The translations under genes and the position numbers were made by a program. Under the pieces are notes generated by a model. That model was not told the origin of the DNA and did no database searches. It worked only from the letters and a program-made list of their open reading frames with translations. From positions 1 to 52,394 of the IMG/VR virus record IMGVR_UViG_3300042291_001547: a DNA stretch of 52,394 nt. One strand, written 5' to 3'. Below are positions 262 through 36,300 of the stretch, one piece after another. The DNA is from a virus (Duplodnaviria; Caudoviricetes). Each line of letters starts with the position of its first letter. The stretch's first letter is position 1.

Positions 262-1558
262 TTTTCAGATCGAAGCGATCAGGCGAGGGGCGCAGGGTAA
301 TTTGTACCTGGCGGCTAAGCCTGGGTCGGGTAAGACTGCGGTCGCCGTGCACCTGGCTACGGGTAAGACGTTGGTCGTCACGCCTAAGCGCGTGGTGCCA
401 CAGTTTGAGATTGAGGCGCGCAAGTGGGGGCTGAATTTGACGTTTGCGCATTGCATGGGCAAGGAGGATGCCCGTAAGGCTGCGCTGGAGGCTGATGCTG
501 ACGTGATCGTGGTGTCCCATGACCACTTCCCTTGGTTAGTGAAGAACGTTCCCCTAAAGGCCTGGCAATTCGATCTGGTGGTGTTCGACGAGGCCAGTCG
601 TCTTCGCAATGGCGGGCGACAGGGTGCGGTTGGCTGGAAAGTTATGAACGAGATCCGGCGTAAAACAAAGTCCAGGTTTTTGCTGATGAGCGGGTCCCCG
701 AGACCCGGCACAGCGCATGAGTTGTTTGCACCGGTGTTTTTGTTAGACGGTGGGGTTCGCCTGGGCAACACGCTGGGCGGGTTTCGCACGGCGTACCTTG
801 AGCCGGCGAAGGTGGATCGATACACCGGCCAGGTGTTCAGCTGGCGCCTTCGCGAGGGCAAGGAGGCAGAGCTGTATGAGCGGATACGTGATCTGTTTTA
901 CGCGGTGTCTCCCGATCTTGGGCTGACGTATACCGAGATCGACCGGTGGGTGACGTTGCCTGCGTCGGTGGCCAGCCAGTGCCAGAAGATGGCCAGGTTT
1001 ATGACTGCGGATTTTTTCGACGATGAGATTACCGCGGGCAGCCTGGGCGTTGTTGCCGGCAAGCTGGTCCAGATGTGTTCAGGCGAGGTGTTCAACGATG
1101 CCGGGGGTACCAGCGTTATCCACGATCAGAAGATCCAGGAGCTGCGAAGCATTATCGATGAGATGGACGGCGAGCCGTTGATGGTCGGGTATTGGTATAC
1201 CCATGAGCGGGAACGGCTGCTGCGAGAGTTTCCAGGCGCGGTTGATATCACTACCGACGAGGGGCTTGAGGCGGCGAAGGCGGGCAAGGTGTCTGTCGCG
1301 CTGATCCATCCCCAGTCCGCTGGCCACGGGATCGATGGACTGCAGCAGCACTTCAGCGCCCTGGCGTTTTACACGTGTCCGCACAGCTACGAGTATTACG
1401 ACCAGCTGATCAAGCGGATTGCGCGAAGCGGGCAGAGGGAGACGGTGAGGGTGTTCCGGATTGTGGCGAGTAACGGGATTGCGGACGTCCGTGTCCTTGA
1501 GGCGCTGGGGAGGAAGGAGCAAGAGCAGGAAGCGTTTTACGGTTTTCTTAACACCTGA
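248..1558 (+). CDS. SNF2-family (SF2) helicase
   Basis: Walker A PGSGKT, motif II VFDEAS, motif III MSGSP, C-terminal HPQSAGHGIDGLQ and QLIKRIARSGQ; ORF open from 239, ATG at 248 assumed. Confidence 0.9.
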   Translation: MLLRDFQIEAIRRGAQGNLYLAAKPGSGKTAVAVHLATGKTLVVTPKRVVPQFEIEARKWGLNLTFAHCMGKEDARKAALEADADVIVVSHDHFPWLVKNVPLKAWQFDLVVFDEASRLRNGGRQGAVGWKVMNEIRRKTKSRFLLMSGSPRPGTAHELFAPVFLLDGGVRLGNTLGGFRTAYLEPAKVDRYTGQVFSWRLREGKEAELYERIRDLFYAVSPDLGLTYTEIDRWVTLPASVASQCQKMARFMTADFFDDEITAGSLGVVAGKLVQMCSGEVFNDAGGTSVIHDQKIQELRSIIDEMDGEPLMVGYWYTHERERLLREFPGAVDITTDEGLEAAKAGKVSVALIHPQSAGHGIDGLQQHFSALAFYTCPHSYEYYDQLIKRIARSGQRETVRVFRIVASNGIADVRVLEALGRKEQEQEAFYGFLNT

Positions 1559-1926
1559 TTGCAGGCTGGGCAGATTGACTTGCCGCGTCGCCTGGATACC
1601 GCCCTGGATATCGCGGCCTGGCTGATGCCGACAAATTTGGCTGCCCGGTAAGCCGTCCAGCCTTTGTCCTGCATCAGGCGTAGCGCCTGGTCGGTTCGGT
1701 AGAAGGGCGAGCCTGTCGCCACCTCGATTTCGGATTCCGGTTCGGCGACTACGTAGACGTGTTCGGTGTCCCATTCGCCTGGGTTATTAGCCCAGACCTG
1801 AGCCTTCCACCGGCCGTCTTCCAGAGTGGCCGAGTACGCCTCGGCCTCCCCGGTTTCCATGTGAGCAATCAGTTTCTCGCGTACGTTGTCAGACCAAGGC
1901 AGGTCTAAAAATTCCTGTCGGTTCAC
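1537..1926 (-). CDS. DNA-binding protein with C-terminal HTH and CxxC
   Basis: TAYRAAKFVGISQAAISRA (HTH), CPAC; GTG at 1926 with GGAG RBS overlaps the DUF932 stop. Confidence 0.7.
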   Translation of the reverse strand: MNRQEFLDLPWSDNVREKLIAHMETGEAEAYSATLEDGRWKAQVWANNPGEWDTEHVYVVAEPESEIEVATGSPFYRTDQALRLMQDKGWTAYRAAKFVGISQAAISRAVSRRRGKSICPACNQVLRKP

Positions 1927-2750
1927 GCGGCGACTCCTTTGAGCTGGCGCATACCTTCGGCCAACTGCCACAGCGCGCGGTTAAGCTTGACGTCCTGCTG
2001 AACGCCAGTAACCGGGCGGGTAGTCAACCGGCGTCCGGTCGAAGCACGTCCACCCTGGCCGCCTTTGATCAGGTTTTCCTGGACCACGTTGAAGGTGTTC
2101 CAGAGTGTAGGGGCGGCGTCTTGATGTCTGTGCGGCACCAGGATGCGTTCAGCAGATACCGGAGCGTTGTCGTCCCAACGCAGTTTCAAAGCTTCAGCAG
2201 CAAACAGGCGGCGTTCAGCTGGCAGCAGCTCGATGCCTTTGAACGCCTGCTTGCGGTCTTCGATCTCCTGCACGTTGCGTAGGATCTCGTAACTGCCTTC
2301 GATGACGTTGTCGACGACGTTGCCTGAATGGCGCACACGGACGTCTGTGTTGATGTCGCCGGCGATCAGGCCGTTGCTGCAGACAAAGCGGAAGTACCCT
2401 GCCAGGAGTTGATAAGAGCTGGCGCCGTCGTGACTGTTGATCAGGATGATCTCCGGCACTTCGCCTTCGCTAGTCAGCAGGCTGCGGTGACGCAGGCGCA
2501 CCATGTGACGGGTAAATTCACGCTTACCGACGTCGCGAGTGCGGGACTGGCGAACCTCGTAAGGCGCGAAGCCTTCTTTCCACATACCGCGCAGCACGTC
2601 GATCGTGGGGATGAAGGTGTACTTATCCGAGCGGCTGTGATGCGCTTCGGTGGCCAGCACTGACGGAGCGTAGCGAGCGAACTGTTCGCCAGTGATAGGG
2701 GCGTTGCTGCGAAAAGCGTTGTCTTTCTGGCTGGACGAATATCTGTACAT
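1923..2750 (-). CDS. DUF932/DUF945 family protein
   Basis: APSVLA..AH.SRSDKYTFIPT, HMVRLR, PEIILINSHDGASSYQLLAGYFRFVCSNGL, TLWNTFNVVQEN, LNRALW; GGAGG RBS before ATG 2750. Confidence 0.9.
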   Translation of the reverse strand: MYRYSSSQKDNAFRSNAPITGEQFARYAPSVLATEAHHSRSDKYTFIPTIDVLRGMWKEGFAPYEVRQSRTRDVGKREFTRHMVRLRHRSLLTSEGEVPEIILINSHDGASSYQLLAGYFRFVCSNGLIAGDINTDVRVRHSGNVVDNVIEGSYEILRNVQEIEDRKQAFKGIELLPAERRLFAAEALKLRWDDNAPVSAERILVPHRHQDAAPTLWNTFNVVQENLIKGGQGGRASTGRRLTTRPVTGVQQDVKLNRALWQLAEGMRQLKGVAA

Positions 2751-2766
2751 GGTGACCTCCTGGGTC

Positions 2767-2817
2767 GGACTCATCAGTACCGGCACATACCGGCAGACGC
2801 CTCGCGGCGTTTCGTCC
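2767..2817 (-). ncRNA. Hammerhead ribozyme, type II topology
   Basis: Minus strand reads GGAC-GAAA-CGCC(GCGA)GGCG-UC/-UGCCGGU(AUGU)GCCGGUA-CUGAUGA-GUCC: full core and all three stems pair; GUC cleavage predicted between 2796 and 2795; fills the intergenic space. Confidence 0.93.
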
Positions 2818-3117
2818 TTATGCTGCGACCTGCTTACGTGCGGTCAGGCGGATAACGGTTGAGCCTTCGCCGATGACGGTGTTGGCTTCGACAGCGCTGC
2901 GGAATGCAAAGTTGTCCCAGAGAACGTCTTTCACAGCTGACCAGTTGGTCTGTTTGCGGCCGACTTGCTGGCTGACGGTAACGCGGAACATGTCTGAGTC
3001 GATCTCAGTCAAGCCGGTGGCCAGGATCTGAGCCTTGATTGCGTCTTCCTGATCTTTCAGGTCGGCGATTGCTGAGCGGAGCTGGGCTAACTTGTCTACC
3101 AAAGTTGTTGCTTTCAT
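2818..3117 (-). CDS. Hypothetical early protein (N-terminal coiled coil)
   Basis: 99-aa ORF with GGAGG RBS, in operon orientation. Confidence 0.75.
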   Translation of the reverse strand: MKATTLVDKLAQLRSAIADLKDQEDAIKAQILATGLTEIDSDMFRVTVSQQVGRKQTNWSAVKDVLWDNFAFRSAVEANTVIGEGSTVIRLTARKQVAA

Positions 3118-3156
3118 GCTGTCCTCCTGGGACTCGTTGTTGGGTGGAGCGAGGTC

Positions 3157-3185
3157 ATTAAACTATGCTTGACAGTAACTGTCAA
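3157..3185 (-). promoter_or_regulatory. Sigma70-like promoter overlapping palindromic operator TTGACAGTAACTGTCAA
   Basis: Minus strand TTGACA-17 nt-TTTAAT; perfect 8+1+8 palindrome at 3169-3185. Confidence 0.65.
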
Positions 3186-3324
3186 CTGTTTTGTTGTAAT
3201 CTGGCCAGCCCAGTTCTCCGTTTGATTCCTCCCACAGCGCGACCATCTCGCAGTGGTGGTTCTGGGCAAGTTCCTGGTCGCCGGCACATGCGGTGAGCAG
3301 GATGAGCAGGGGCAGCAGTTTCAC
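3163..3324 (-). CDS. Small lipoprotein (53 aa)
   Basis: GTG start coupled to the upstream stop; MKLLPLLILLTAC signal with lipobox LTAC. Confidence 0.7.
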   Translation of the reverse strand: MKLLPLLILLTACAGDQELAQNHHCEMVALWEESNGELGWPDYNKTVDSYCQA

Positions 3325-3584
3325 TTTACACTCCGTAGGTGCTTCGGCACCGGCTGTTTGGTTTTCTCCAACACGATGTTGTACCCGAGTACCCGGGCAA
3401 CCGGCGCCAGCTTGTCTATCCTCGGCGCGCCTGTCTTGCCTGCCTTCCAGTTGTACAGCGTGCCCCAGTGGCACCCGGCTTGGGTTGCGATATCACGCAG
3501 CCCTTCGTCGCTGTATTTCCACAATTCGTGGATGATATCCACGAATATTGCTTCCCGAGTGTCTTCGTTGAGTTTAAGTTTCAT
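3321..3584 (-). CDS. XRE/Cro-like HTH transcriptional regulator
   Basis: LRDIATQAGCHWGTLYNWKAGKTGAPRIDKLAPVARVLG. Confidence 0.8.
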   Translation of the reverse strand: MKLKLNEDTREAIFVDIIHELWKYSDEGLRDIATQAGCHWGTLYNWKAGKTGAPRIDKLAPVARVLGYNIVLEKTKQPVPKHLRSVK

Positions 3585-3769
3585 CGTGCTTCCCCTAACC
3601 GTCGGTAGTCAGTGTTTTCCTGCCAGGATGGAGTCCTGGATAGGGTTTGCCATTCGCCTGGACGGTGCGACAAACCTTTGTCGCGGAACTCCCACAGCGT
3701 CCAGGGCGTACTTGTGGTCATCGCGTCGGCCGCGTAAGCGGCCATCAATTCTGCGTGTGCGTGTTTCAT
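3581..3769 (-). CDS. Hypothetical phage protein
   Basis: 62-aa ORF with GGAGG RBS, translationally coupled to the next gene. Confidence 0.7.
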   Translation of the reverse strand: MKHAHAELMAAYAADAMTTSTPWTLWEFRDKGLSHRPGEWQTLSRTPSWQENTDYRRLGEAR

Positions 3770-3797
3770 GTTTGTGTCCTCCTGGGACTGGTGGTGG

Positions 3798-4046
3798 TTA
3801 AGCTAAAACTTGTACTTTGCCCAGCAGCTTGACTGCGCCCACTTCGCGCAAAGCGACACCGCCCACGTTGTACTGCTGCCGCTTTGCCCCGGTGCGGCTG
3901 CCATACCCGGTAGCGCCGTTGCCGCCGATGTCGATGACCTTAACCACACGCAGCCGCTTCGGGCTGATCGCCTCGGCCTGAGCCGTCACGACTTCTGAGC
4001 GCCAGCCTGCTGGCGTGTATACTGCAGTGTTGTATCTGATTTGCAT
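3798..4046 (-). CDS. Hypothetical early protein (82 aa)
   Basis: ATG 4046 with GGAGG RBS; the longer ORF call to 4388 would run through the ribozyme and promoter. Confidence 0.7.
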   Translation of the reverse strand: MQIRYNTAVYTPAGWRSEVVTAQAEAISPKRLRVVKVIDIGGNGATGYGSRTGAKRQQYNVGGVALREVGAVKLLGKVQVLA

Positions 4047-4062
4047 TTTGTGTCCTCCTGGG

Positions 4063-4117
4063 ACTTGTTTCGGCCTGCTGAGCCTCGTCAGTAGCGCAGC
4101 GTCAGCGCTATACAAGT
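4063..4117 (-). ncRNA. Hammerhead ribozyme, type III topology
   Basis: Minus strand reads ACUUG-UA/-UAGCGC(UGACGCU)GCGCUA-CUGACGA-GGCU(CAGCA)GGCC-GAAA-CAAGU: full core and three stems; GUA cleavage predicted between 4111 and 4110. Confidence 0.92.
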
Positions 4118-4200
4118 TGCCGGTTTGTCCTGAGAGGCATCCGCCCCGGCTCCTGGTGTTTGGTCTGCGCCAGTCCGCAGTTGTTCGGTGTTGCAAGGCC

Positions 4201-4229
4201 ATTACATAGTACTTAACAGTAACTGTCAA
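4201..4229 (-). promoter_or_regulatory. Early sigma70-like promoter overlapping near-palindromic operator TTAACAGTAACTGTCAA
   Basis: Minus strand TTGACA-17 nt-TGTAAT with AT-rich upstream sequence; 16/17 identity to 3169-3185. Confidence 0.7.
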
Positions 4230-4249
4230 GCAATGTTTATTGATAATAA

Positions 4250-4279
4250 TTTCTATCGATAAAGCAAAAACGATAGAAA
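4250..4279. promoter_or_regulatory. Inverted repeat CTATC-N14-GATAG upstream of the virion operon
   Basis: TTTCTATCG...CGATAGAAA; same core and spacing at 10156-10182. Confidence 0.5.
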
Positions 4280-4381: not shown

Positions 4382-4603
4382 ATGGCACAAAGAATTGAGA
4401 TCGAGATCGCTGACGACGGCGCTACATCCGTCACTGTGATGATGGACGGCGGAGATCCGCAGATGATGGAGTTCGCCAGCACCGACGAAGCGCTTGACGC
4501 GCTTGGTCAGTTGCTCGCCGGTGAAGAGCCAGGCGAAGACGAGATGTGGAACGAAGAAGCCGCGGCGCGTGAAGCCCAACCAATGATGGAGGAGATGATG
4601 TGA
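4382..4603 (+). CDS. Hypothetical acidic protein
   Basis: GAGG RBS, ATG 4382, first gene of the rightward operon. Confidence 0.7.
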   Translation: MAQRIEIEIADDGATSVTVMMDGGDPQMMEFASTDEALDALGQLLAGEEPGEDEMWNEEAAAREAQPMMEEMM

Positions 4604-26444: not shown

Positions 26445-27325
26445 GAGGATTGATTGCAGCCGCGCTTGGTGGAGTATCCAGAGGCGTCGGTCAAGTAGCC
26501 GAGAAACAGATTGAAGTTAACTCTCGAAAGGCTTTGATGGAAGCCGAAGAAGAGATGAACGCGCGCCTGGCCGAGGCTGCCGAAGGTCGCGCGATTGCCG
26601 CTGAAGGCCGAGCTGAAACCCGCCTGCTTGCTGCTGAAGGCCGAGCTGATGCTCGCGCGATTGCCGCTGAAGGCCGTTTGGATCCTGTTGAGCGAGAACA
26701 ACTGAGTCTGCTTCAAGCGCAGGTCTCTGGGGTTAGACGTGACAGCGCTTGGACGGAGAAAGAGCAAGGCATTAGAACGCGGCTTGGCGATGCGGTTTTT
26801 GGTTCGGAAGATTATAATACCGCACAGCAAGAACTTGACGCCATGCTGACTACGGGCACCCGCGCGCAACGCGCGCAAGACAACGTTGCTGCGGGCGCCA
26901 GATATGTAGACCTGGCTGAGTTAAATTTTGATCAGGCTGAACAGCTCAGAAAAGACCTTCGCGATGGAAACATTTTTGAGCCAGATGACGTTGCCGACGC
27001 TAATGAACGGATAATTCAGCTTCAAAGAAACGCAGAACGGGCGATGATGGACGCGAACGACTTGCTGTCTGGTGGAGGCAGCGGCGCGCGGCAGACGCCG
27101 ACGCAACCGCGAGTGCCCCTGGGGGCGCAACCGCAAAGCGCTCCGCAACCGCAGAGCGCTCCGCAACCGCAGAGCGCTCCGGGGGTGTCGTCCAGAGGGA
27201 TTATCTCTACGCAACAACTGCTAGGGATTACCCCTTCGCAACCAAGAGACCTTACTTTGTTTTTCAGACCGGGGACTACTATTCCCGTACGGCCGAGAGG
27301 AGAAATGATTAGTGGAGTCTTTTAA
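26441..27325 (+). CDS. Putative internal virion protein
   Basis: MRGLIAAALGG N-terminus, AAEGR repeats, (PQSAPQ)x3. Confidence 0.6.
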   Translation: MRGLIAAALGGVSRGVGQVAEKQIEVNSRKALMEAEEEMNARLAEAAEGRAIAAEGRAETRLLAAEGRADARAIAAEGRLDPVEREQLSLLQAQVSGVRRDSAWTEKEQGIRTRLGDAVFGSEDYNTAQQELDAMLTTGTRAQRAQDNVAAGARYVDLAELNFDQAEQLRKDLRDGNIFEPDDVADANERIIQLQRNAERAMMDANDLLSGGGSGARQTPTQPRVPLGAQPQSAPQPQSAPQPQSAPGVSSRGIISTQQLLGITPSQPRDLTLFFRPGTTIPVRPRGEMISGVF

Positions 27326-30300
27326 TTACTTAGCCGCCCGCCAGGCGGGGTATTCTGAAGAAGAGATTGGTCGTTTTCTTGCAAACCAATATTCTTTTGA
27401 CTATGACGGCGCGGTAGCAGAGGGGTACAAGCCTCAAGAGATCGTAGACTTTTTGTCTATCCGAGAAACGAAACCTGTGGCTGCTCCTGAAGTAGAAGAG
27501 CGCACGGTAGGTAATGCTGTCCAGGATTTAGCCGCGTCGTTTGGCGTCGGCACCGGGCAGCTGGTTGGCCTGCTGGGTTCAGCTTACGGCTTGACCACCG
27601 GGGACATGGACAACAGAGCCACTCGATTTGGCGCCAACACTGCTGAGTTCTGGGAGGCGCGTAAAACGCCTATACTCAAAGCCGCTGAAGATTTGCGCCA
27701 GGCCAGGGTTGACGCTGCTGAAGGTGAGTTTGAAAAAGCCGGCGTCGCCATTTGGGAGACTATTAAAAACCCAATGCTGCTTGTCAGCGAAGTCACCAAA
27801 CAGGTGCCTAACTTAGCGGTGGGCGGCCTTGCTGGTTTAGGTGCTAAGACGGTTGGCAAAGTAGGCGCAGCAACTCTTGGCAAAGAACTTAGTGAGCAGG
27901 CGGTAACCAAAATTGGTGTAGGCGCCGCTACGGGCAGTGAGCTTGGTTTGTCTTCGGCTGATTTTGGTCAGTCCGCGTACGACCAGTTGATGGCAATACC
28001 TGACGAGGTGTGGGCTGCAAACCCTGACCTGCAGGAAAGAACCGGTGGAAACCCTGACTTGTTCTTTAGGGTCAAGCGGGAGATGGCCACTGAGCTTGCG
28101 CAGAACAGCGCGATCGCCGGCGGCATTGTAACGTTCGGCCTGAATAAGTTACCCGGCGCAAAGACCATTGAAAAAGTATTGGGTGGCGACGCGTTAACCG
28201 GCACAAGAACTCGACGTGCACTCACGGGTCTCGCAGGCGAAACGGTATCTGAGGGCGCTGAAGAAGTGGCCACACAGCTGTCCGCTAATATCGCTCAAGC
28301 CCAGATAGATCCCAACACTGATTTGACCGCCGGTCTTGGCCAGGCGGGTGGCCTTGGCGCGTTAGTCGGCGGCGCCTTTGGTGCTGGTGCTGGCGCTCTG
28401 TCCCCGCAGAGAGCAGAGGCTCTAGCCCCGTCAGGCTTAGAAAGCCTGTCCGTCGGGCAGACAGACACTATAAACGGCAACATTGTCTCTAGAACCCAAT
28501 CCGGTTTTGACATAACCACTCCGACCGGCATGCGCATTCAGACTGATCTTAGTGGCGCGAACACTATACTTAACCGCCCGGTCGAGGAGCAACGGCCGCG
28601 CGGACTCCTACGCGACGCAACCAACGCCGGTGAAGCGGTATCCGCTGCAGAAGATATTATTGGCAGCATCGACGCAGACATCGAAGCCTTGGAAAGAGAA
28701 GTAGACCTGGCGTCGACTGACGCAATCGTTGAGTCGATTACCCCTGCTCCGATTACCCCTGCTCCGATTACCCCTGCTCCGCAGGAGACCCTTCAGTCTG
28801 GTCGAGGCCTGCTCGCTCAAGAGATGACCGGTACCGCGTCTGTTACCTTGCCTCCGGTTGAACCTGCGCCTACGTTAACCCTGGAGGCATTGGCGTCGGC
28901 TGACATCTCCAGTATGCCCGCGCCTGAGCGACAAGAGTTTTTAGCGGATCTAAATTTTGCCCGTACGGCAGAGCTGCCCGCTCAGCGTCAGAGCGCGCTC
29001 ACCCGTGCAGCAGAGACCTACGGCAGAACAGTTGGTCCTATTCAGCAGCCCGTAGCTCGAGCAACGCCTGAAGAAGCCCTGCAGGCCACCAGGCAGCCTA
29101 CTGCTGAACGTCTGACCACCGCTGCGCCAGACATAGACGCGCTGTTAGGCGCCGACACCCGCGGCCTGGATCAGGAAGACCGTGCAGACTTTAACGCTCA
29201 GCTGGCCATGGCACGCACCGCAGAGCCTGGTCCAGTTCAGACCGCTGCACTTAACCGTGCCGCTGAGATTTACGGCCGAGCGATAGGACCTATCCAGCCG
29301 CGCACACAAGCGCTTGCTGCGGAAAGGGTGACCACTGCAGCGCCTGATTTAGACGCACTGTTGACCGCGGATACCCGCGCCCTGCCACAGGAAGATCGAG
29401 ACGACTTTAACGCTCAGCTGGCTATGGCGCGCACCACAGAGCCTGGCCCCGCGCAGACCGCTGCACTTAACCGTGCTGCCGAGATTTACGGCCGGACGAT
29501 AGGGCCTATTCAGCCGCGCACACAAGGCAGCGCTCGACCCGAAGCGCCAAGACCGACCCGGTTGTTAGGACGAGCCACTGAAACATACACCGCGCCTGAG
29601 CTGCAAAGCTTAGCGGACAACACCAAATTGCCGGAGATTACTCGCCGAGGCGCTCAGATTGAGCTGCGTGCGCGTTCTGATTTCGCGACGTCCTTTAATC
29701 CCACAATGGCGCCCATGCGCACGCAACCTTTAGAGGTGTCAACGAATGTCGAAATCACCAGAGCAGCCCCAGCGACGCTTCAGCAAGGAGGCGCTGCGTC
29801 ATTGCCTGACGCCGCTGTTAACGTACCGACTAGAGCAGATGAAAGACGTGCAGCCTTCCAGCCAATCCTCGACTCCGTCCTGCGCCCCGGCGACCCCAAA
29901 ATAACTCTGGGCGCTCCGACGCCTGAAGCAGAAGCCCAGATCCAGGAGATGAGCAGCATCCTTGGCAGCGCGTTTGGCCAGGATCTGCCCGTGGTGGCGT
30001 TCTCTGATCCTTCGCCAGAATCGCCAAACGGTTTTGCGCTTAAAGGCCAGGCGTTTGTTAACGTGTCCGGGTTGCAGATCTCTGCCCCGCGCACAACGCT
30101 GCATGAGTTTAAACACGTTGTCGAGCAGATTGCACTTGCTGAGCGCGCGGCGGGGCTTACCGACACCGCCGCCCAGGAGTTTACCGAGCAGATAGAAAGC
30201 ATTTTCGACGACATGAGCGAGGAGGGTAAACGCAGCTACGCTGAGAAGCTGTTGTTCACCGCAGAACTTGAAGGCCTTTCTGGCGCTGAGCGGGAGACCC

Positions 30301-33300
30301 GGCTTCAAGAGCTGTTGGCTGACCCACTGCTGCGCTCAGAGATGACCGCTGACTTCCTGGGCAACCGTGCGCAGGATAAAAAGTTTTGGACTGACCTGGC
30401 CGCGGCAGATCCGCAAGGGTTTACCGGGTTCGTTGAGCGCTGGCTGGCCGTTGTTAATAACCTGCTGGCGCAACTACGCGGCGCTAAGAACCAGGGGACT
30501 AAAGAGTCTGCCAGGGTCGACAAGTATATCAAAGACTTGAACAGAGCCAAGCTGACCGCGCAGAGCGCGCTGATTAATTACCGCAAGGCCACTGGCCAGG
30601 CGCCCGTTGCTACGCCTGCCGCAGCCGCAGCGCCTCAGTTCTCTATAAAAGAAGGCGCCTCGTTGGCGGACACTGCATCCTTAGCCGGTGCTAACCGAGT
30701 CTCATCGTCGCAGACCTGGCGAAAGGGGCGGGACTTGAAGGTCGCGCTCCAGCAGCGCGTGATTGACGCAGCTGCCGCGCGGGGCATAGACGTCTCCACC
30801 GATAGCCCCGAGACCCGTGAGTACCTGCGCGAAGTAGGTATGAAAGACGCACTGGCCGCGCTAAACCAAAACCCCAACGCCATTGGCTGGTACGACATTA
30901 AAACGCGCCAGGCCTTAGCCGTGATGTCTCTGGTTCACCCAGAGATCGCACGCGATGAGAACGCCCGGTTTGCGTTTACCTGGGCTTTGGCCGTTACTTC
31001 AAACGGCATGAAGGTAGAGCAGAATTTTGAGTTAGCTGAGAAGGCGTACGATCGGTACAAGCGCGACGGCGTAATGCCGTCAAACTTGGGGGCGGGTACC
31101 GCTGGAAAAGCGATTAACCAATCGCTCGCAATGTTCAACGAACTGCGCGACGCGTGGGGCATCGACAACCTACGCCAGTTCATGCAGACCAATTTTACGG
31201 TTAGCGAGATCACCGGCCTGAGCAAAGACCTGACCCCGGGCGGCGAGTTTGCAAACACCACGGTTAAAGGCGCTGCTATCCTTGGCCCTAAGATCGGCAA
31301 CGGGTTCTTCTCTAACCTGTACGGAGACTTCACCAGCCTGACCATGGATCGATGGCTTATCCGCACCTGGGGACGCTGGACGGGGACGCTTATCAAAGCG
31401 ATGCCTGAGCAGACCGCTCTGGCACGCACCCGGTTATCCAACAACGTGAAGGCTATAGTAGCGAACAAACAAGAGGCCGCTCGGTTAGAGGCGCTCATCG
31501 GCGCTGAGATCACCGCCGACATGGACGTTGATCAGTTGTCCGCGGTGGTACAAAAAGCGTCTATGGATCCTAAGATCCGAGCAAAGCTTAACGAGACTGA
31601 TCTAGGGCAGACCCTGCGACTGGCCGGCAATAGCCTGGCCAAGTATCTCGACGGGCAAAAAGAAGCGCCATCTGGGCCAGAAGAGCGTCAGTACATCCGT
31701 GCCGTGTTTAATGATATACTTGACGAGCTGAATCAGACAGACCAGTATAAAGACCTCATGATGGCAGATCTCCAGGCTGTCCTGTGGTATGCTGAAAAAC
31801 GGCTATACGAAACTGCTAAAGACGACCCAAATCAACTTGCCGCAGACGAAGGCGTCGAAGGTTATGACGACGAGTCTGCGCCAGACTACGCTAACGCCGC
31901 CGCGCGTATAGCTCGTCAGAAGGGCGTCACAGACAAGCGTATTAATGCGACATTAAAGAGAATAGAAAATGAACGATCAACAGCAGCACGATCTGAAGAT
32001 GGCGTCTCGCAAGACGCTGGAGACAGGCAGCCGGCAACAGGTAGAGGCTTTACTCGCCAAGAAAAACGCAAGTTCATTGGAGAGCGAGCCGTCCTCAGAG
32101 TCAGGGCCGATCGAATGGGCGATGCGCAATCACCCGGGTCTTACTCGTCAAAAGGCCAACCAGATGGCGGACGCGTTCGGGTTCTAAAATCTTTAGGTGT
32201 CTCGTACACCAACGAGTGGAAGTTAAACCGAGACGCCGCCACGGCGTTCAGGGCTAATAAGATGCCTGCTCCAGAGTTCCTGGAGTTGGCATCAACTGCA
32301 GAAAATGCTCAGAAATTTGCCGAAAGCATCTCAGAAAATAAAGCCACACATCCTTTTGGCGCAGCTGTTTACGTGTACTCTCCTGAAGAGTACCGAGACA
32401 TGCGCCTGTTCCTTACTGAAGACGGCAAGTCTGGCGTAGCAATCAAGCCTGACGGGGACATCGTTTCTGTGTTCAGTACCGGTGGCGCCGGACGAGCTGT
32501 AATGGAGCTGGCGGTGGCCGCGGGCGGAAGAAAGCTAGACGCCTTTGACACCATCCTCCCAAAGTTCTACGCACCGCATGGATTCCGAGCCGTTGCTCGA
32601 ACCCGGTGGAACGACGAGTTTGCACCAGAAGAGTGGAACAAAGACACGTTCGAAGAGTTTAACAACGGCGAACCCGACGTTGTATTCATGGTTTACGACC
32701 CCGCTAAGATGGACGCCGAGTACAGCGCTAAAGACGGCAAAGTCATGGCTGAGTACGACCGTGCGGTAAGTCTTCAGAACCGTGAGATGAAGCGGTTAAC
32801 GCCGCAGTTCAGCCGCAAGCAGGGCGACGTCCTGGCCAGAGATCCTCGTCTGGAGCAAGCCGCTCAGGGGATGAAGGAAGGTACGGTTACAAGCGCTGAG
32901 TACCGCGAGCTGGTAAATGCAATCAAGCCGGTTACCCCGTATACGGAAGCCCCAGATCCAGCCAAGCCCGAGGACATTCGACGCGCGCTGACGTCTGACA
33001 AACTTGATCGGATCGGCGTGCCCAGTAAAACGCTTAAGGCCGGAGACCCGGTCGGTCTGCGCCTGGATATCCCAGCCTACGCCAACCACGGCGTGTGGGT
33101 TGTCTCTGTTCACGATCAGATACCAGGCTTTGCTGCCGGCAAGTCGATCGGCTACGAGAGCGTGGCTTCGGTTACAAACCCCACCTTTGGCGTCGTTGAA
33201 AGCGCAGCGCTCAACATTGCCTCCGGGAAACCGAAAGCCACCATCGCGGTAATGAAGGGCGACTGGAAACCAATCACTCCTAAGCAAGCATCTGCTACCG

Positions 33301-36300
33301 CCAAGCTTGCTATGGATTCAAAGAGCTGGGCACAGGTGGGCATGGACCCTACCCGGCACGCGTACTTCTACGACCGCGCCACGCTCCAGCCAGTTGTGTC
33401 CGCTGACGAAGCAATCCAGGTGGGACCTCTCGTTCTTGCTAAGAACCCGGTGTACGGTAACAAAGAGGATTTTCATTTTAGCCGTAAGCAGGCCGATGAC
33501 ACCGACGAGCCGGTCAGGATTCGACTGGGTCGAACCGATAACACGGCTGCTAATAAGGCCTTGGATTCTCTCCAGGCTAAGCTTGCGGCCAACCCGCTAA
33601 ACGATAGAGAGCTTACGCGCAAAGGCGCAGCGGTTAACCTGTCCGTGGACAACGGGGCGCTACGCATATCCGATATTCGCAGCACATCACCCGGCCAAGG
33701 CGAGGCTTCAGAGCTGTTGGATATGGTGCTCGCCGAAGCAGACACCGCTGGCACAAAGGTTACGCTTTTCGCAGACAGCTACGTCGAAGACAGCGGGCTT
33801 AACACCGATGCCCTGGTCGATTGGTATTCTCGCCGTGGGTTTGAAGAGGTGCGACGAGACGAAGACGGCGTAGAAATGCGTCGGTACCCTGCTAATCTGC
33901 AGTTCAGCCGTAAGCAGGGCGGCGACGAGGTTGCAGACATCCGCGATGCCCGTGAAGAGCGGAACCTGCGAATGTTCTCTCAAGATTTACGGTCTCGAAT
34001 TTCAGATTCAGTTAAAACTCGCGCCGAGAATACCCGTAAAGTCGATGCTGAGGGGGGTTTCCTGGGCTTAGAAGTAGGAGACACTTTCTTGACCCAGGGG
34101 GCGGGAGGGCGCCGCTGGCGTAATAAGGTTATCGCTAAAAGTTTATCGCGTGTCGGTCCCTCTATGCGTAGGCCTACAGGTAACCTGAACCCTATATCTT
34201 CTGAATTTGAATATACTTTCGACAATACGGTTTACACCCCTGCCTTGTACGTAGAGACCATTGGTCCTGACGGAGACGTGTCGCAGACTACAAACCTGCT
34301 CTATCTCTTGGACCAGACCGGCTACACTAAAATGGGAGGGCCGAAGTTCAGCCGTAAGCAGACAGACACGCCCGACATCCGATTCAGCCTCAAGCAGCAG
34401 CCGTTTTACAGCAGCCTTAAAAGGGCTGTGGGTGATATGCCTGAGCGTATGCGCACGCAGCCTGCTAAACAGTGGGTGCAGTGGCTCACCTCGCCATCGA
34501 ATCAGAGCCGCTTCGGGTTTAAGAAAGACGAGGTCAGCTGGTCAGGCGTTGAGGATTACCTCAACCTACGCGGCAAGGATAAGGTCACTGCTGACGACAT
34601 CATCCAGTACCTGAACGAAAACAACGTGGTTGTACAGGACGTTGTGCTCGGTGGTACGCCGGTAGAAGAAAGCGCATACCCTGCCGGCACGTTCATGCTT
34701 CCGGAGTCTGGAGAGACTGGCGACATGGCGTATTGGCGCGAAGAGCTACAGCGCATTGCCGAGGAAGAAGAACTAGACGTTGATACTTTAATGGATGAGC
34801 TGGAGGATGTATCCGGTGAATCTATGCCTGTCGATGCTCCCGAAGACTCTGTTCAATACTCGCAGTACGTGGCAGGGCAGGGCGAAAATTACCGTGAAGT
34901 GCTGATCACTCTACCTGTCAAACAGGTTACAAAAACCTGGGTTGCTGACGACACTAAGAATGGTTGGCGGGTAAAAGACCAAGACGGATTGTATCTAGGC
35001 ACTATCCGTAAAGATAACGCCAAGACCGCGGAAGAAGCTATCGCCGAAGCCGCGCTTACGTTTCGAGGACGCAAACGTGCAGAGGAGGTGGACTATAAAT
35101 CTAGCCACTGGAGCGCGCCCAACGTTCTAGCCCATTTACGCGTGGATGACCGGTTTACATTAACGCCGTTGACGCCTGATGAAATAGCCAAGTTAGAGCT
35201 AATAGGCAAGGCTGAACCTAAGTTGAGCGCTGCGCGAAATAGATTAAGAGTTGCGCGGCGCGGTGCTGCTTTACGCCGCGACGTTCGTATCGATGCCCTT
35301 AAAGATGAGCTGCGGCCACTGGTGCGCGCGGGGCAGCTGCCCTTATCAGAGATGATTGCCAGACTGGATGAGGTGTCTAGCGAAGAAGATCCTTTAGTTA
35401 AAAAAGCAGCTGAAGAATTTCGCCAGTTGCAGGACTCTCTTTCAATTCCAAATACCCCTGTTCAAAATCGACAGAGCGTATTGTTCGTCAACGAAGTCCA
35501 GTCCGACTGGGGACAAGATGCTCGTAAAAAGGGTGTCCGGTCAGAGACTTTTGTAAAAGATGACAGATCAGTGTGGTCGGCTTTTGACGAATATACCGAC
35601 ACTCTTTACAGCGGCCGTTTTGACCGGGCGCTGGACTACTTAAGAATCAGATCTATAAATCCTGTGAGTTTTTTAAGGAATTCGTCTACTGATGAAATAA
35701 AAACGTTCTTCAACAAGTACGAACCTGAAAACGCAGCCGAGATAATTCCTTTGGCGGAGACTTATAAAAACGTAAGCGCGTTGCGTGAATCCCAGGCGGT
35801 GTCTTCTAAAGGCGTGTCCCCTGCACCGTTCATAGGCGACACCGAATCCTGGGCTACCTTGGCTATCAAGCGCGCGGTAATCCTGGCGGTGGACGGTGGC
35901 TACGATAAGTTGGCTTTCGTCAACGGCGAGCAAGCTGCTGAGATGTTTGATCTAAGTAAGCGCGTGGGAGAGATCTTATACAATGAGGGAGACGGTCGAT
36001 ACTCGTTAGTAATATACAGCCCTGACAATGACTTAATTCATAAGCAGGATAACGCCTCCCCAGACGATGTCGCTAACCTAATTGGTAAAGACCTGGCTAA
36101 TAAAATAGTCAACGGTGAAGGGGTGTACAGTGATAGTTACGGCGCCACGGTTATCTCGGGACTCGACCTGAAAGTCGGCGGTGAAGGCATGGCCGGTTTC
36201 TACGACGGCATCGTGCCTAACATCCTGCGTAAACTTGCCAAGAAGTTCGGCGGCACGGTAGCTGTTGAGCCAGTCCAGGTCAGCCCGGGACGTAGCAAGA

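Follow-up and report, generated by a model that had tools for sequence, protein, structure and literature searches.

Gene arrangement at the locus

The window analysed here is the whole of one IMG/VR virus record (IMGVR_UViG_3300042291_001547; 52,394 bp, class linear, estimated completeness 94%). A minus-strand operon of this record, extending from ~4194 to ~1537, carries two motifs of the hammerhead ribozyme, one of type III and one of type II. The operon is divergent from the plus-strand terminase and structural genes, and its final gene, open reading frame (ORF) G, converges on the helicase gene. Phage genes in the window comprise a P22/Xfas53-like large terminase, a DNA polymerase, an exonuclease, a primase and the helicase. 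The source is an uncultured lake phage: the stretch is present at half or more of its words in 19 DNA runs, all lake-water metagenomes, and near-identical DNA is found in many such runs. A tRNA scan found no tRNA.

A first-pass annotation, made from the sequence alone, had described the two motifs as the borders of an excisable five-gene cassette. The presence of two co-oriented hammerheads with intact cores and correct helices was confirmed base for base. As that annotation had stated, both are intergenic and each adjoins the next ribosome-binding site (RBS). The type III motif is preceded by a promoter-like element and followed by the RBS that serves the first ORF (ATG at 4046). The type II motif fills the gap from the TAA stop codon of ORF E (2820-2818) to the DUF932 gene's RBS; its end lies 16 nt ahead of the DUF932 ATG (2750). 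The coordinates of all features are collected in Table 1.

Table 1. Features of the operon and its upstream region (positions in the window).
Feature	Position	Strand	Remarks
Promoter-like element with palindromic operator	4201..4229	minus	-35 TTGACA 4229-4224, 17-nt spacer, -10 TGTAAT 4206-4201
Operator TTGACAGTTACTGTTAAG	4229-4212	minus	overlaps the -35-like TTGACA
Structured 5′ leader RNA	4111..4185	minus	from a 12-sequence alignment; 3′ end is the predicted type III cleavage site
Leader helix P1	4180-4176/4169-4165	minus	5 bp
Leader pseudoknot	4173-4170/4156-4153	minus	4 bp
Leader helix P2	4150-4146/4123-4119	minus	5 bp
Leader helix P3	4137-4135/4131-4129	minus	3 bp, inside P2
Type III hammerhead ribozyme	4063..4117	minus	predicted cleavage GUA↓U between 4111 and 4110
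RBS hairpin GUCC-CAGGA-GGAC	4052..4064	minus	before ORF A; same motif before three more operon ORFs
ORF A	3798..4046	minus	82 aa; no family match
ORF B	3581..3769	minus	62 aa; phrog_18768, unknown function
ORF C	3321..3584	minus	87 aa; weak transcriptional regulator match (phrog_8, E 4e-5); no Pfam match
ORF D, putative small lipoprotein	3163..3324	minus	53 aa; starts VKLLPLLILLTAC; phrog_6168, E 9e-6
Second operator/-35 copy TTGACAGTTACTGTCAAG	3168..3185	minus	TTTAAT 17 nt further on; overlaps the 3′ end of ORF D
ORF E, hypothetical	2818..3117	minus	99 aa; relatives precede the hammerhead-DUF932 unit in other contigs
Type II hammerhead ribozyme	2767..2817	minus	predicted cleavage GUC↓U between 2796 and 2795
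RBS hairpin GACC-CAGGA-GGUC	2754..2766	minus	before the DUF932 gene; predicted in a 78-nt fold
ORF F, DUF932 protein	1923..2750	minus	275 aa; PF06067, E 1.4e-45; phrog_12094, E 2.4e-94
ORF G	1537..1971	minus	144 aa (later start possible, 129 aa); weak helix-turn-helix (HTH) match

Structure of the two hammerhead motifs

In the type III motif, stem III is formed by ACUUGU/ACAAGU (6 bp), stem I by UAGCGC/GCGCUA (6 bp) and stem II by GGCU/GGCC (4 bp), after which GAAA follows. Stems I and II are closed by loops and stem III is open. The core is intact, with CUGACGA, GAAA and a UH cleavage dinucleotide, and the expected core-flanking pairs G10.1-C11.1 and A15.1-U16.1 are both present. The folding energy gives z = -1.2, and the minimum-free-energy structure differs from the hammerhead fold.

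The type II motif runs in the order stem II GGAC, GAAA, stem III hairpin CGCC/GGCG, the cleavage site GUC↓U, stem I hairpin, CUGAUGA and GUCC. Here stem I and stem III are closed, stem II is open and the core is again intact. Energy minimisation recovers precisely the hammerhead fold (z = -2.2).

The first-pass annotation had proposed an Infernal scan with the Rfam hammerhead models. In a 2-kb scan, the type III motif gave a full-length match to RF00008 (31.4 bits, E 2.9e-4; model positions 1-54) and the type II motif a full-length match to RF02276 (28.4 bits, E 3.8e-3); both scores lie below gathering. When the whole window was scanned against Rfam, the two motifs were the sole matches at E ≤ 1 (E 0.0076 for type III, 0.1 for type II), and at the gathering score no match was found anywhere in the window. 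A match to RAGATH-25 at 4356-4318 (17.4 bits vs 49, E 0.41) was taken as chance; this stretch is not conserved in relatives.

Conservation and covariation in related phages

Related loci were gathered by a DUF932 protein search, by pattern scans for the type III motif and the leader RNA described below, and by scanning with a hammerhead descriptor of our own. Invariance of the core is uninformative in this set, the descriptor scan having required the core. The search yielded 24 leader-bearing loci, several of which are one contig present in two collections; 12 distinct leader sequences are represented.

In all 24 leader-bearing loci a type III motif follows the leader core at 40-42 nt. Where 2 kb or more of downstream sequence is present (13 loci), the type III motif is in every case followed by one to three type II motifs of the same strand; one of these loci also has a second type III motif. 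Loci with shorter downstream sequence show fewer or no type II motifs, as truncation would lead one to expect. Infernal runs on two related searchable records found three type II and one type III motif in each; the type III copies scored 32.5 and 24.6 bits with RF00008, and two type II copies, both from a related contig, exceed the Rfam gathering score with 41.4 and 38.2 bits. Paired hammerheads, which the first-pass annotation had suggested seeking in related phages, are thus found there, with the type III motif first and the type II motifs after it.

Sequence changes among the relatives preserve the helices. Among 11 distinct type III versions, two or more Watson-Crick types are seen at stem I pairs 2-4 and at stem III pairs 3, 5 and 6, and stem II is almost invariant. 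The 18 distinct type II versions show compensatory changes at pairs 4 and 6 of stem I, pair 2 of stem II and pairs 3-6 of stem III. The placement before genes is also preserved, an AGGAG-type RBS being present within ~25 nt downstream of 22 of the 24 distinct hammerheads for which downstream sequence is available.

The genes between the motifs differ. Depending on the contig, the next ribozyme lies 313-1878 nt from the type III site, the ribozymes number two to four and the genes vary; most distinct contigs with downstream sequence have a different gene in first place behind the type III motif. A gene map of 12 contigs, drawn from crude ORF calls in which a few frames are spurious, revealed a recurrent module consisting of an ORF E-like gene, a type II hammerhead and DUF932. 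In 9 of the 11 DUF932-bearing contigs a type II motif lies directly upstream of DUF932, and in 5 of the 11 a further one lies directly after it. As the relatives keep the motifs, their order and their helices, the pair in the window is, on this sequence comparison, the smallest version of a conserved multi-hammerhead operon.

Type III hammerheads with the stem II and loop GGCC-CAGNA-GGCC were also observed in 17 other viral contigs (L121-L137). These copies lie a few bases 5′ of an RBS and start codon, several of them directly after a stop codon, and look like a widespread phage subtype placed before genes.

Ribosome-binding sites and coding content of the operon

The RBSs of the operon are stereotyped. 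The RBS core CCCAGGAGG occurs five times in the window, four of them in the operon, against 0.35 copies expected. At 2756-2764, 3123-3131, 3778-3786 and 4054-4062 (minus strand) it forms part of a hairpin, G(U/A)CC-CAGGA-GG(A/U)C, with the Shine-Dalgarno GGA in the loop. The GUCC with which the RBS hairpin can be closed doubles, in some relatives, as a strand of type II stem II; because this strand is shared, cleavage could switch the RBS structure in those relatives.

Two labels given in the first-pass annotation held in part. ORF C, called an XRE regulator, has the phrog_8 regulator match and nothing in Pfam. ORF D, called a lipoprotein, has a signal-peptide/lipobox-like start and is therefore listed as putative.

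Putative promoter and operator elements

Transcription of the operon would start near 4194, downstream of the promoter-like element at its head. The TTGACR-N17-TnnAAT layout of this element is retained across 13 aligned contigs. The palindromic 18-mer TTGACAGTTACTGTYAAG overlapping the -35 element occurs exactly twice in the window, against 0.01 expected, and both copies are in the operon. The second copy, at 3185-3168, is likely to be an internal promoter inside the five-gene unit, and the 18-mers are likely operators for a phage repressor. This repressor is perhaps the weakly XRE-like ORF C, which is encoded between the two copies. Similar CTTGACR palindromes are seen at internal positions in relatives.

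An inverted repeat, TTCTATCG...CGATAGAA, lies in the AT-rich region at 4245-4275 between the divergent operons, and its half-sites are present in several relatives. It has a weak pntA-sRNA-like Rfam match (28.4 bits vs 54, E 0.1) and could be a further operator or an element acting in both directions. An N4-like hairpin promoter was considered for the palindromic element and set aside: the single ORF of 3913 aa at 27312-39053 (plus strand) matches PHROG families over no more than its C-terminal ~870 residues and two short stretches further inside, all of unknown function.

A conserved structured leader RNA

The region between the predicted transcription start and the type III cleavage site is the best-conserved part of its surroundings in the aligned contigs. 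This leader of ~70 nt has a fold of three helices and a pseudoknot that joins the P1 loop to a downstream CCRG. In the 12 distinct sequences, 98.5% of cells are paired and compensatory changes are found in 5 of the 17 pairs, a level of covariation reached by none of 500 shuffles. The single-stranded runs ACCAAACA, GGCGGAUG and ACAAR are invariant, and the leader is kept in contigs that carry different genes behind it. The leader adjoins stem III of the hammerhead with a gap of 1-2 nt, and in some relatives P1 would start within a few bases of the predicted transcription start.

Searches for the leader elsewhere gave no convincing match. A 96-nt segment with the leader has no match in Rfam at E ≤ 10, and the 161-nt leader plus hammerhead has none among 50,697 deposited phage genomes. 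The covariance model R1, which scores 100.3 bits on the window, found nothing in 43 more distant DUF932 loci (L005-L047) or in the 17 loci with a similar type III motif (best scores 12.8 and 12.3 bits). In genome contigs, 49 loci were returned, all at 26.7 bits or less; as prophage or host copies of the leader they were rejected and read as chance matches, a GC-rich pattern having served as seed. The longest exact complement to the leader within the phage is 11 nt, about chance level for antisense targets.

Several identities were considered for the leader and set aside. It is unlikely to encode a small peptide, because one-base insertions in two relatives (L052, L062) fall in its small ATG-initiated frame. 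Comparison by eye with consensus features did not support a pistol, twister, hepatitis delta virus (HDV)-like, guanidine-III or ZTP-like fold, for which there is also no Rfam match. A CsrA sponge was rejected, just one GGA being invariant. Antiterminator RNAs of the put type must stay tethered to the polymerase, and such a role was dropped on this ground. The leader is put forward as a candidate new structured RNA without an Rfam family, confined to this clade of lake phages.

Proposed processing of the operon transcript

We consider it probable that the hammerheads process a mosaic phage operon into separate mRNAs with fixed 5′ ends, and that the type III motif also severs the leader. According to this model, a sigma-70-like promoter with a palindromic operator would drive the operon from ~4194 to ~1537, and the hammerheads would cut the transcript during its synthesis. 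Cleavage by the type III motif would sever the pseudoknotted leader, roughly 70-85 nt long, from the mRNA; the freed RNA would measure ~70-90 nt and carry a cyclic phosphate, so that a discrete small RNA could be obtained from the 5′ untranslated region without ending transcription. Cleavage by the type II motif would part the upstream block of small genes from the DUF932 and HTH genes. A 5′-OH and the stem I hairpin would head the downstream mRNA, with a strong stereotyped RBS a few bases further on, and the upstream piece would end in the stem III hairpin and a cyclic phosphate. The two type II products should separate rather than religate because only the 4-bp stem II holds them. Each expression unit would gain a fixed 5′ end irrespective of the cassette upstream, and the stability and translation of each piece would be uncoupled from its neighbours, as by a natural insulator.

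The motifs and their positions, their conservation and covariation and their variable number and spacing in relatives are observed directly. These support the processing that the first-pass annotation had proposed in its minimal form, namely that the operon is cut into separate pieces; cleavage in vivo, the effects on stability and translation that it had attached to the cut and any function of the leader we infer from the sequences.

A number of results weigh against this model. Both motifs fall below the Rfam gathering scores (31.4 vs 48.5 bits for type III, 28.4 vs 37 for type II), and the type III cleavage site is GUA instead of GUC. The pseudoknot between loop I and the 3′ tail, described as typical of type II hammerheads in the part of the literature drawn on here (PMC3088659), was not seen by eye at 4 bp or longer in the window type II motif (loop UAUGUG, tail GACCCAGG...), and for this reason the motif may be slow at cellular Mg2+. 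The pseudoknot is a frequent feature and not an obligatory one: the GGCC-type copies in relatives have it, and one copy carries a covarying GGGU/ACCC version. An automated promoter scan made no call at 4229-4201 because position 2 of the -10 element is not A, so we infer both the transcription start and a single transcript spanning the two ribozymes. If the internal copy of the operator is the promoter it is likely to be, many transcripts would meet the type II motif only. At E ≤ 0.5 no hammerhead is present in nine more distant DUF932 loci (L005-L013), and the link between hammerhead and DUF932 is therefore clade-specific. As for the leader, its predicted folding energy is matched by shuffled sequences (z 0.07), and its support is purely comparative, from 12 closely related sequences of a narrow clade.

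It is conceivable, though doubtful, that the type III motif serves to make a small RNA and that the leader represents a new class of phage RNA with a regulatory or anti-host role. If true, the 3′ end of this RNA would be cut by a ribozyme and not set by a terminator, and one promoter would deliver both the RNA and the downstream operon. Leader and type III motif together would then be a possible case of a ribozyme setting the end of a phage small RNA.

Alternative interpretations

A bolder variant makes the leader a sensor and the type III motif a natural allosteric hammerhead. Binding of a ligand or protein, or pairing with the RBS, would control folding and cutting of the type III motif, or would control translation of the first gene until the cut frees the RBS. 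The position of the leader against stem III, the invariant single-stranded runs, which are typical of binding pockets, and the pairing of the leader segment UGCCUCUCAGGAC with the RBS hairpin region in a 145-nt window fold would all suit such an element. However, 4 of the 12 distinct sequences have CCCAAGRGG in the leader and do not keep this pairing, and covariation favours the local P3 hairpin instead. No result points to a ligand or partner, and to our knowledge no natural allosteric hammerhead is known. We regard control in cis by the leader as unlikely.

DNA of the lake metagenomes varies at the same places as the gene content. One lake variant (DNA run X13) lacks 3779-4047, with 267 bases skipped; ORF A is gone, and the RBS region of the type III hammerhead is joined to ORF B. 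Other lake-metagenome contigs branch at 4052-4081, 3115-3184 and 2758-2787. The cassette boundaries fall on the RBS and hammerhead junctions, and frequent exchange of cassettes at these sites would agree with the contig breaks and variants. Such exchange may be a second, DNA-level benefit of the motifs.

Taken further, this leads to a reading in which the motifs are DNA-level junctions of 50 nt for cassette exchange by homologous recombination, or relics, with self-cleavage incidental, weak or lost. The mosaic genes between the motifs, the breaks and the X13 variant, and the missing pseudoknot of the window type II motif agree with it. Compensatory changes nevertheless keep all three helices as the primary sequence shifts, which means selection on RNA structure and not on DNA identity, and the scores of relatives reach Rfam gathering. 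As a replacement for RNA processing, a purely DNA-level role is very unlikely in our judgement; the two roles are compatible with each other.

Hammerhead cleavage leaves a 5′-OH and a 2′,3′-cyclic phosphate, which can be joined by RtcB, and 5′-OH ends escape the 5′-monophosphate-stimulated attack of RNase E. On this basis the first-pass annotation had proposed that double cleavage frees the five-gene RNA and that ligation turns it into a stable circular mRNA that is not cleaved again; the ligase would be one of the host, of the RtcB type, and the circle would be translatable. The released RNA, 4110..2796, was correctly calculated as 1315 nt. A junction joining 2796 to 4110 would be, as had been said, a chimeric hammerhead with stem II or stem III unmatched, and RtcB is common in bacteria (present in 10 of 14 control genomes). 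The cassette itself did not stand up as a unit: the number and spacing of ribozymes and the genes between them vary among relatives, so that no fixed unit is conserved, and an internal operator or promoter copy lies inside it. Neither RtcB (PF01139) nor RNA_ligase (PF09414) nor an Rnl-type ligase was found in the phage record. Successive cleavage and ligation to spliced or circular RNAs was raised for prophage hammerheads and neither product was detected, the data not being displayed in that paper (PMC3088659), and our literature search brought up no case of a circular phage mRNA made by a ribozyme. Circularisation, for which we obtained no evidence whatever, we hold to be very improbable.

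A single metatranscriptome (X20) had any match to the stretch, amounting to 6% of its words in 11 of 30 bins, with no joints. The data are contigs only (1876-2055, 2097-2313, 2814-3008 and 4436-4600), which show neither ends nor strand, and DNA in the library is possible.

In five related loci (L004, L054, L066, L068 and L071) DUF932 lies between type II hammerheads, most of which share a stem II of GGAC/GUCC or GUC/GAC. From these loci, an excised DUF932 RNA would regenerate an intact hammerhead if its ends were joined, unlike the chimera of the window.

Comparison with known systems

Processing of the operon by co-oriented hammerheads has close precedents in print. The first-pass annotation knew of no description of paired phage hammerheads; this was mistaken. 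Perreault et al. 2011 (PLoS Comput Biol; PMC3088659) describe, in the part of the paper used here, multiple hammerheads that flank genes or short gene blocks in prophages. Cleavage of three tandem arrangements in vitro yielded the products expected, and one was cut in E. coli. Both the multi-hammerhead arrangement and the idea of circular or spliced RNA are thus already known. A 2017 review notes different hammerheads flanking small non-conserved ORFs (PMC6155905), and a 2019 review, in the section relied on, treats polycistronic processing as suggested and unproven and the role of bacterial and phage hammerheads as open (PMC6765202).

The window shares with those prophages co-oriented hammerheads of mixed types (there I, II and III) among small non-conserved genes, for which processing into single-gene or operon mRNAs was proposed (PMC3088659, in part). 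Clustered phage hammerheads are defined as at least two, oriented like the genes and placed around single genes or short blocks of them; the window contains two such hammerheads, and its relatives two to four, in a phage context. Unlike the arrangements in the portion of that text available here, the present one lies on a free lake-water phage contig with a different gene set, and a conserved structured leader, with which the transcript would begin, is fused to its first ribozyme. The further interest of the locus lies in the conserved multi-ribozyme architecture and the unclassified leader RNA, the paired arrangement being in print and the circle unsupported.

Three type II hammerheads near phage-like genes of Desulfovibrio vulgaris cleave in vivo, according to the part of PMC8782182 considered here. 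Like the type II motif of the window they are intergenic and near hypothetical, HTH and phage-like genes, and two of the three are ~250 nt apart. The D. vulgaris copies have been seen to cleave in cells (by cyPhyRNA-seq) and in vitro, whereas the present motifs are known from sequence.

Viroid and retrozyme circles, joined by tRNA ligase or RtcB, are the precedent for the proposed circular RNA and resemble the predicted products in having ligatable hammerhead ends, so far as the sections cited cover them (PMC4918200, PMC7229834). There, like ribozymes stand in the repeats of non-coding replicons or retroelements; here the two ribozymes differ and the unit is not conserved. Theta ribozymes, minimal HDV-like ribozymes located by phage tRNAs, offer a loose precedent for a ribozyme-ended leader RNA: in the portion of PMC10879173 drawn on, a small ribozyme sets the end of an adjoining structured RNA. 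The ribozyme class differs, and the partner is a tRNA there and an unclassified pseudoknotted leader here.

The clade provides a clean natural series, with one promoter, one leader, two to four ribozymes before stereotyped RBSs and swapped cassettes. Such a series could serve to test ribozymes as insulators or stability elements of mosaic operons. The synthetic element RiboJ, said to originate from a plant satellite hammerhead, reportedly places a hammerhead directly 5′ of a hairpin and RBS and so yields the same mRNA 5′ end whatever lies upstream. Insulators of the RiboJ type, as presented in the part of PMC6206723 cited, are engineered, whereas in the lake phages the layout is natural and repeated along the operon.

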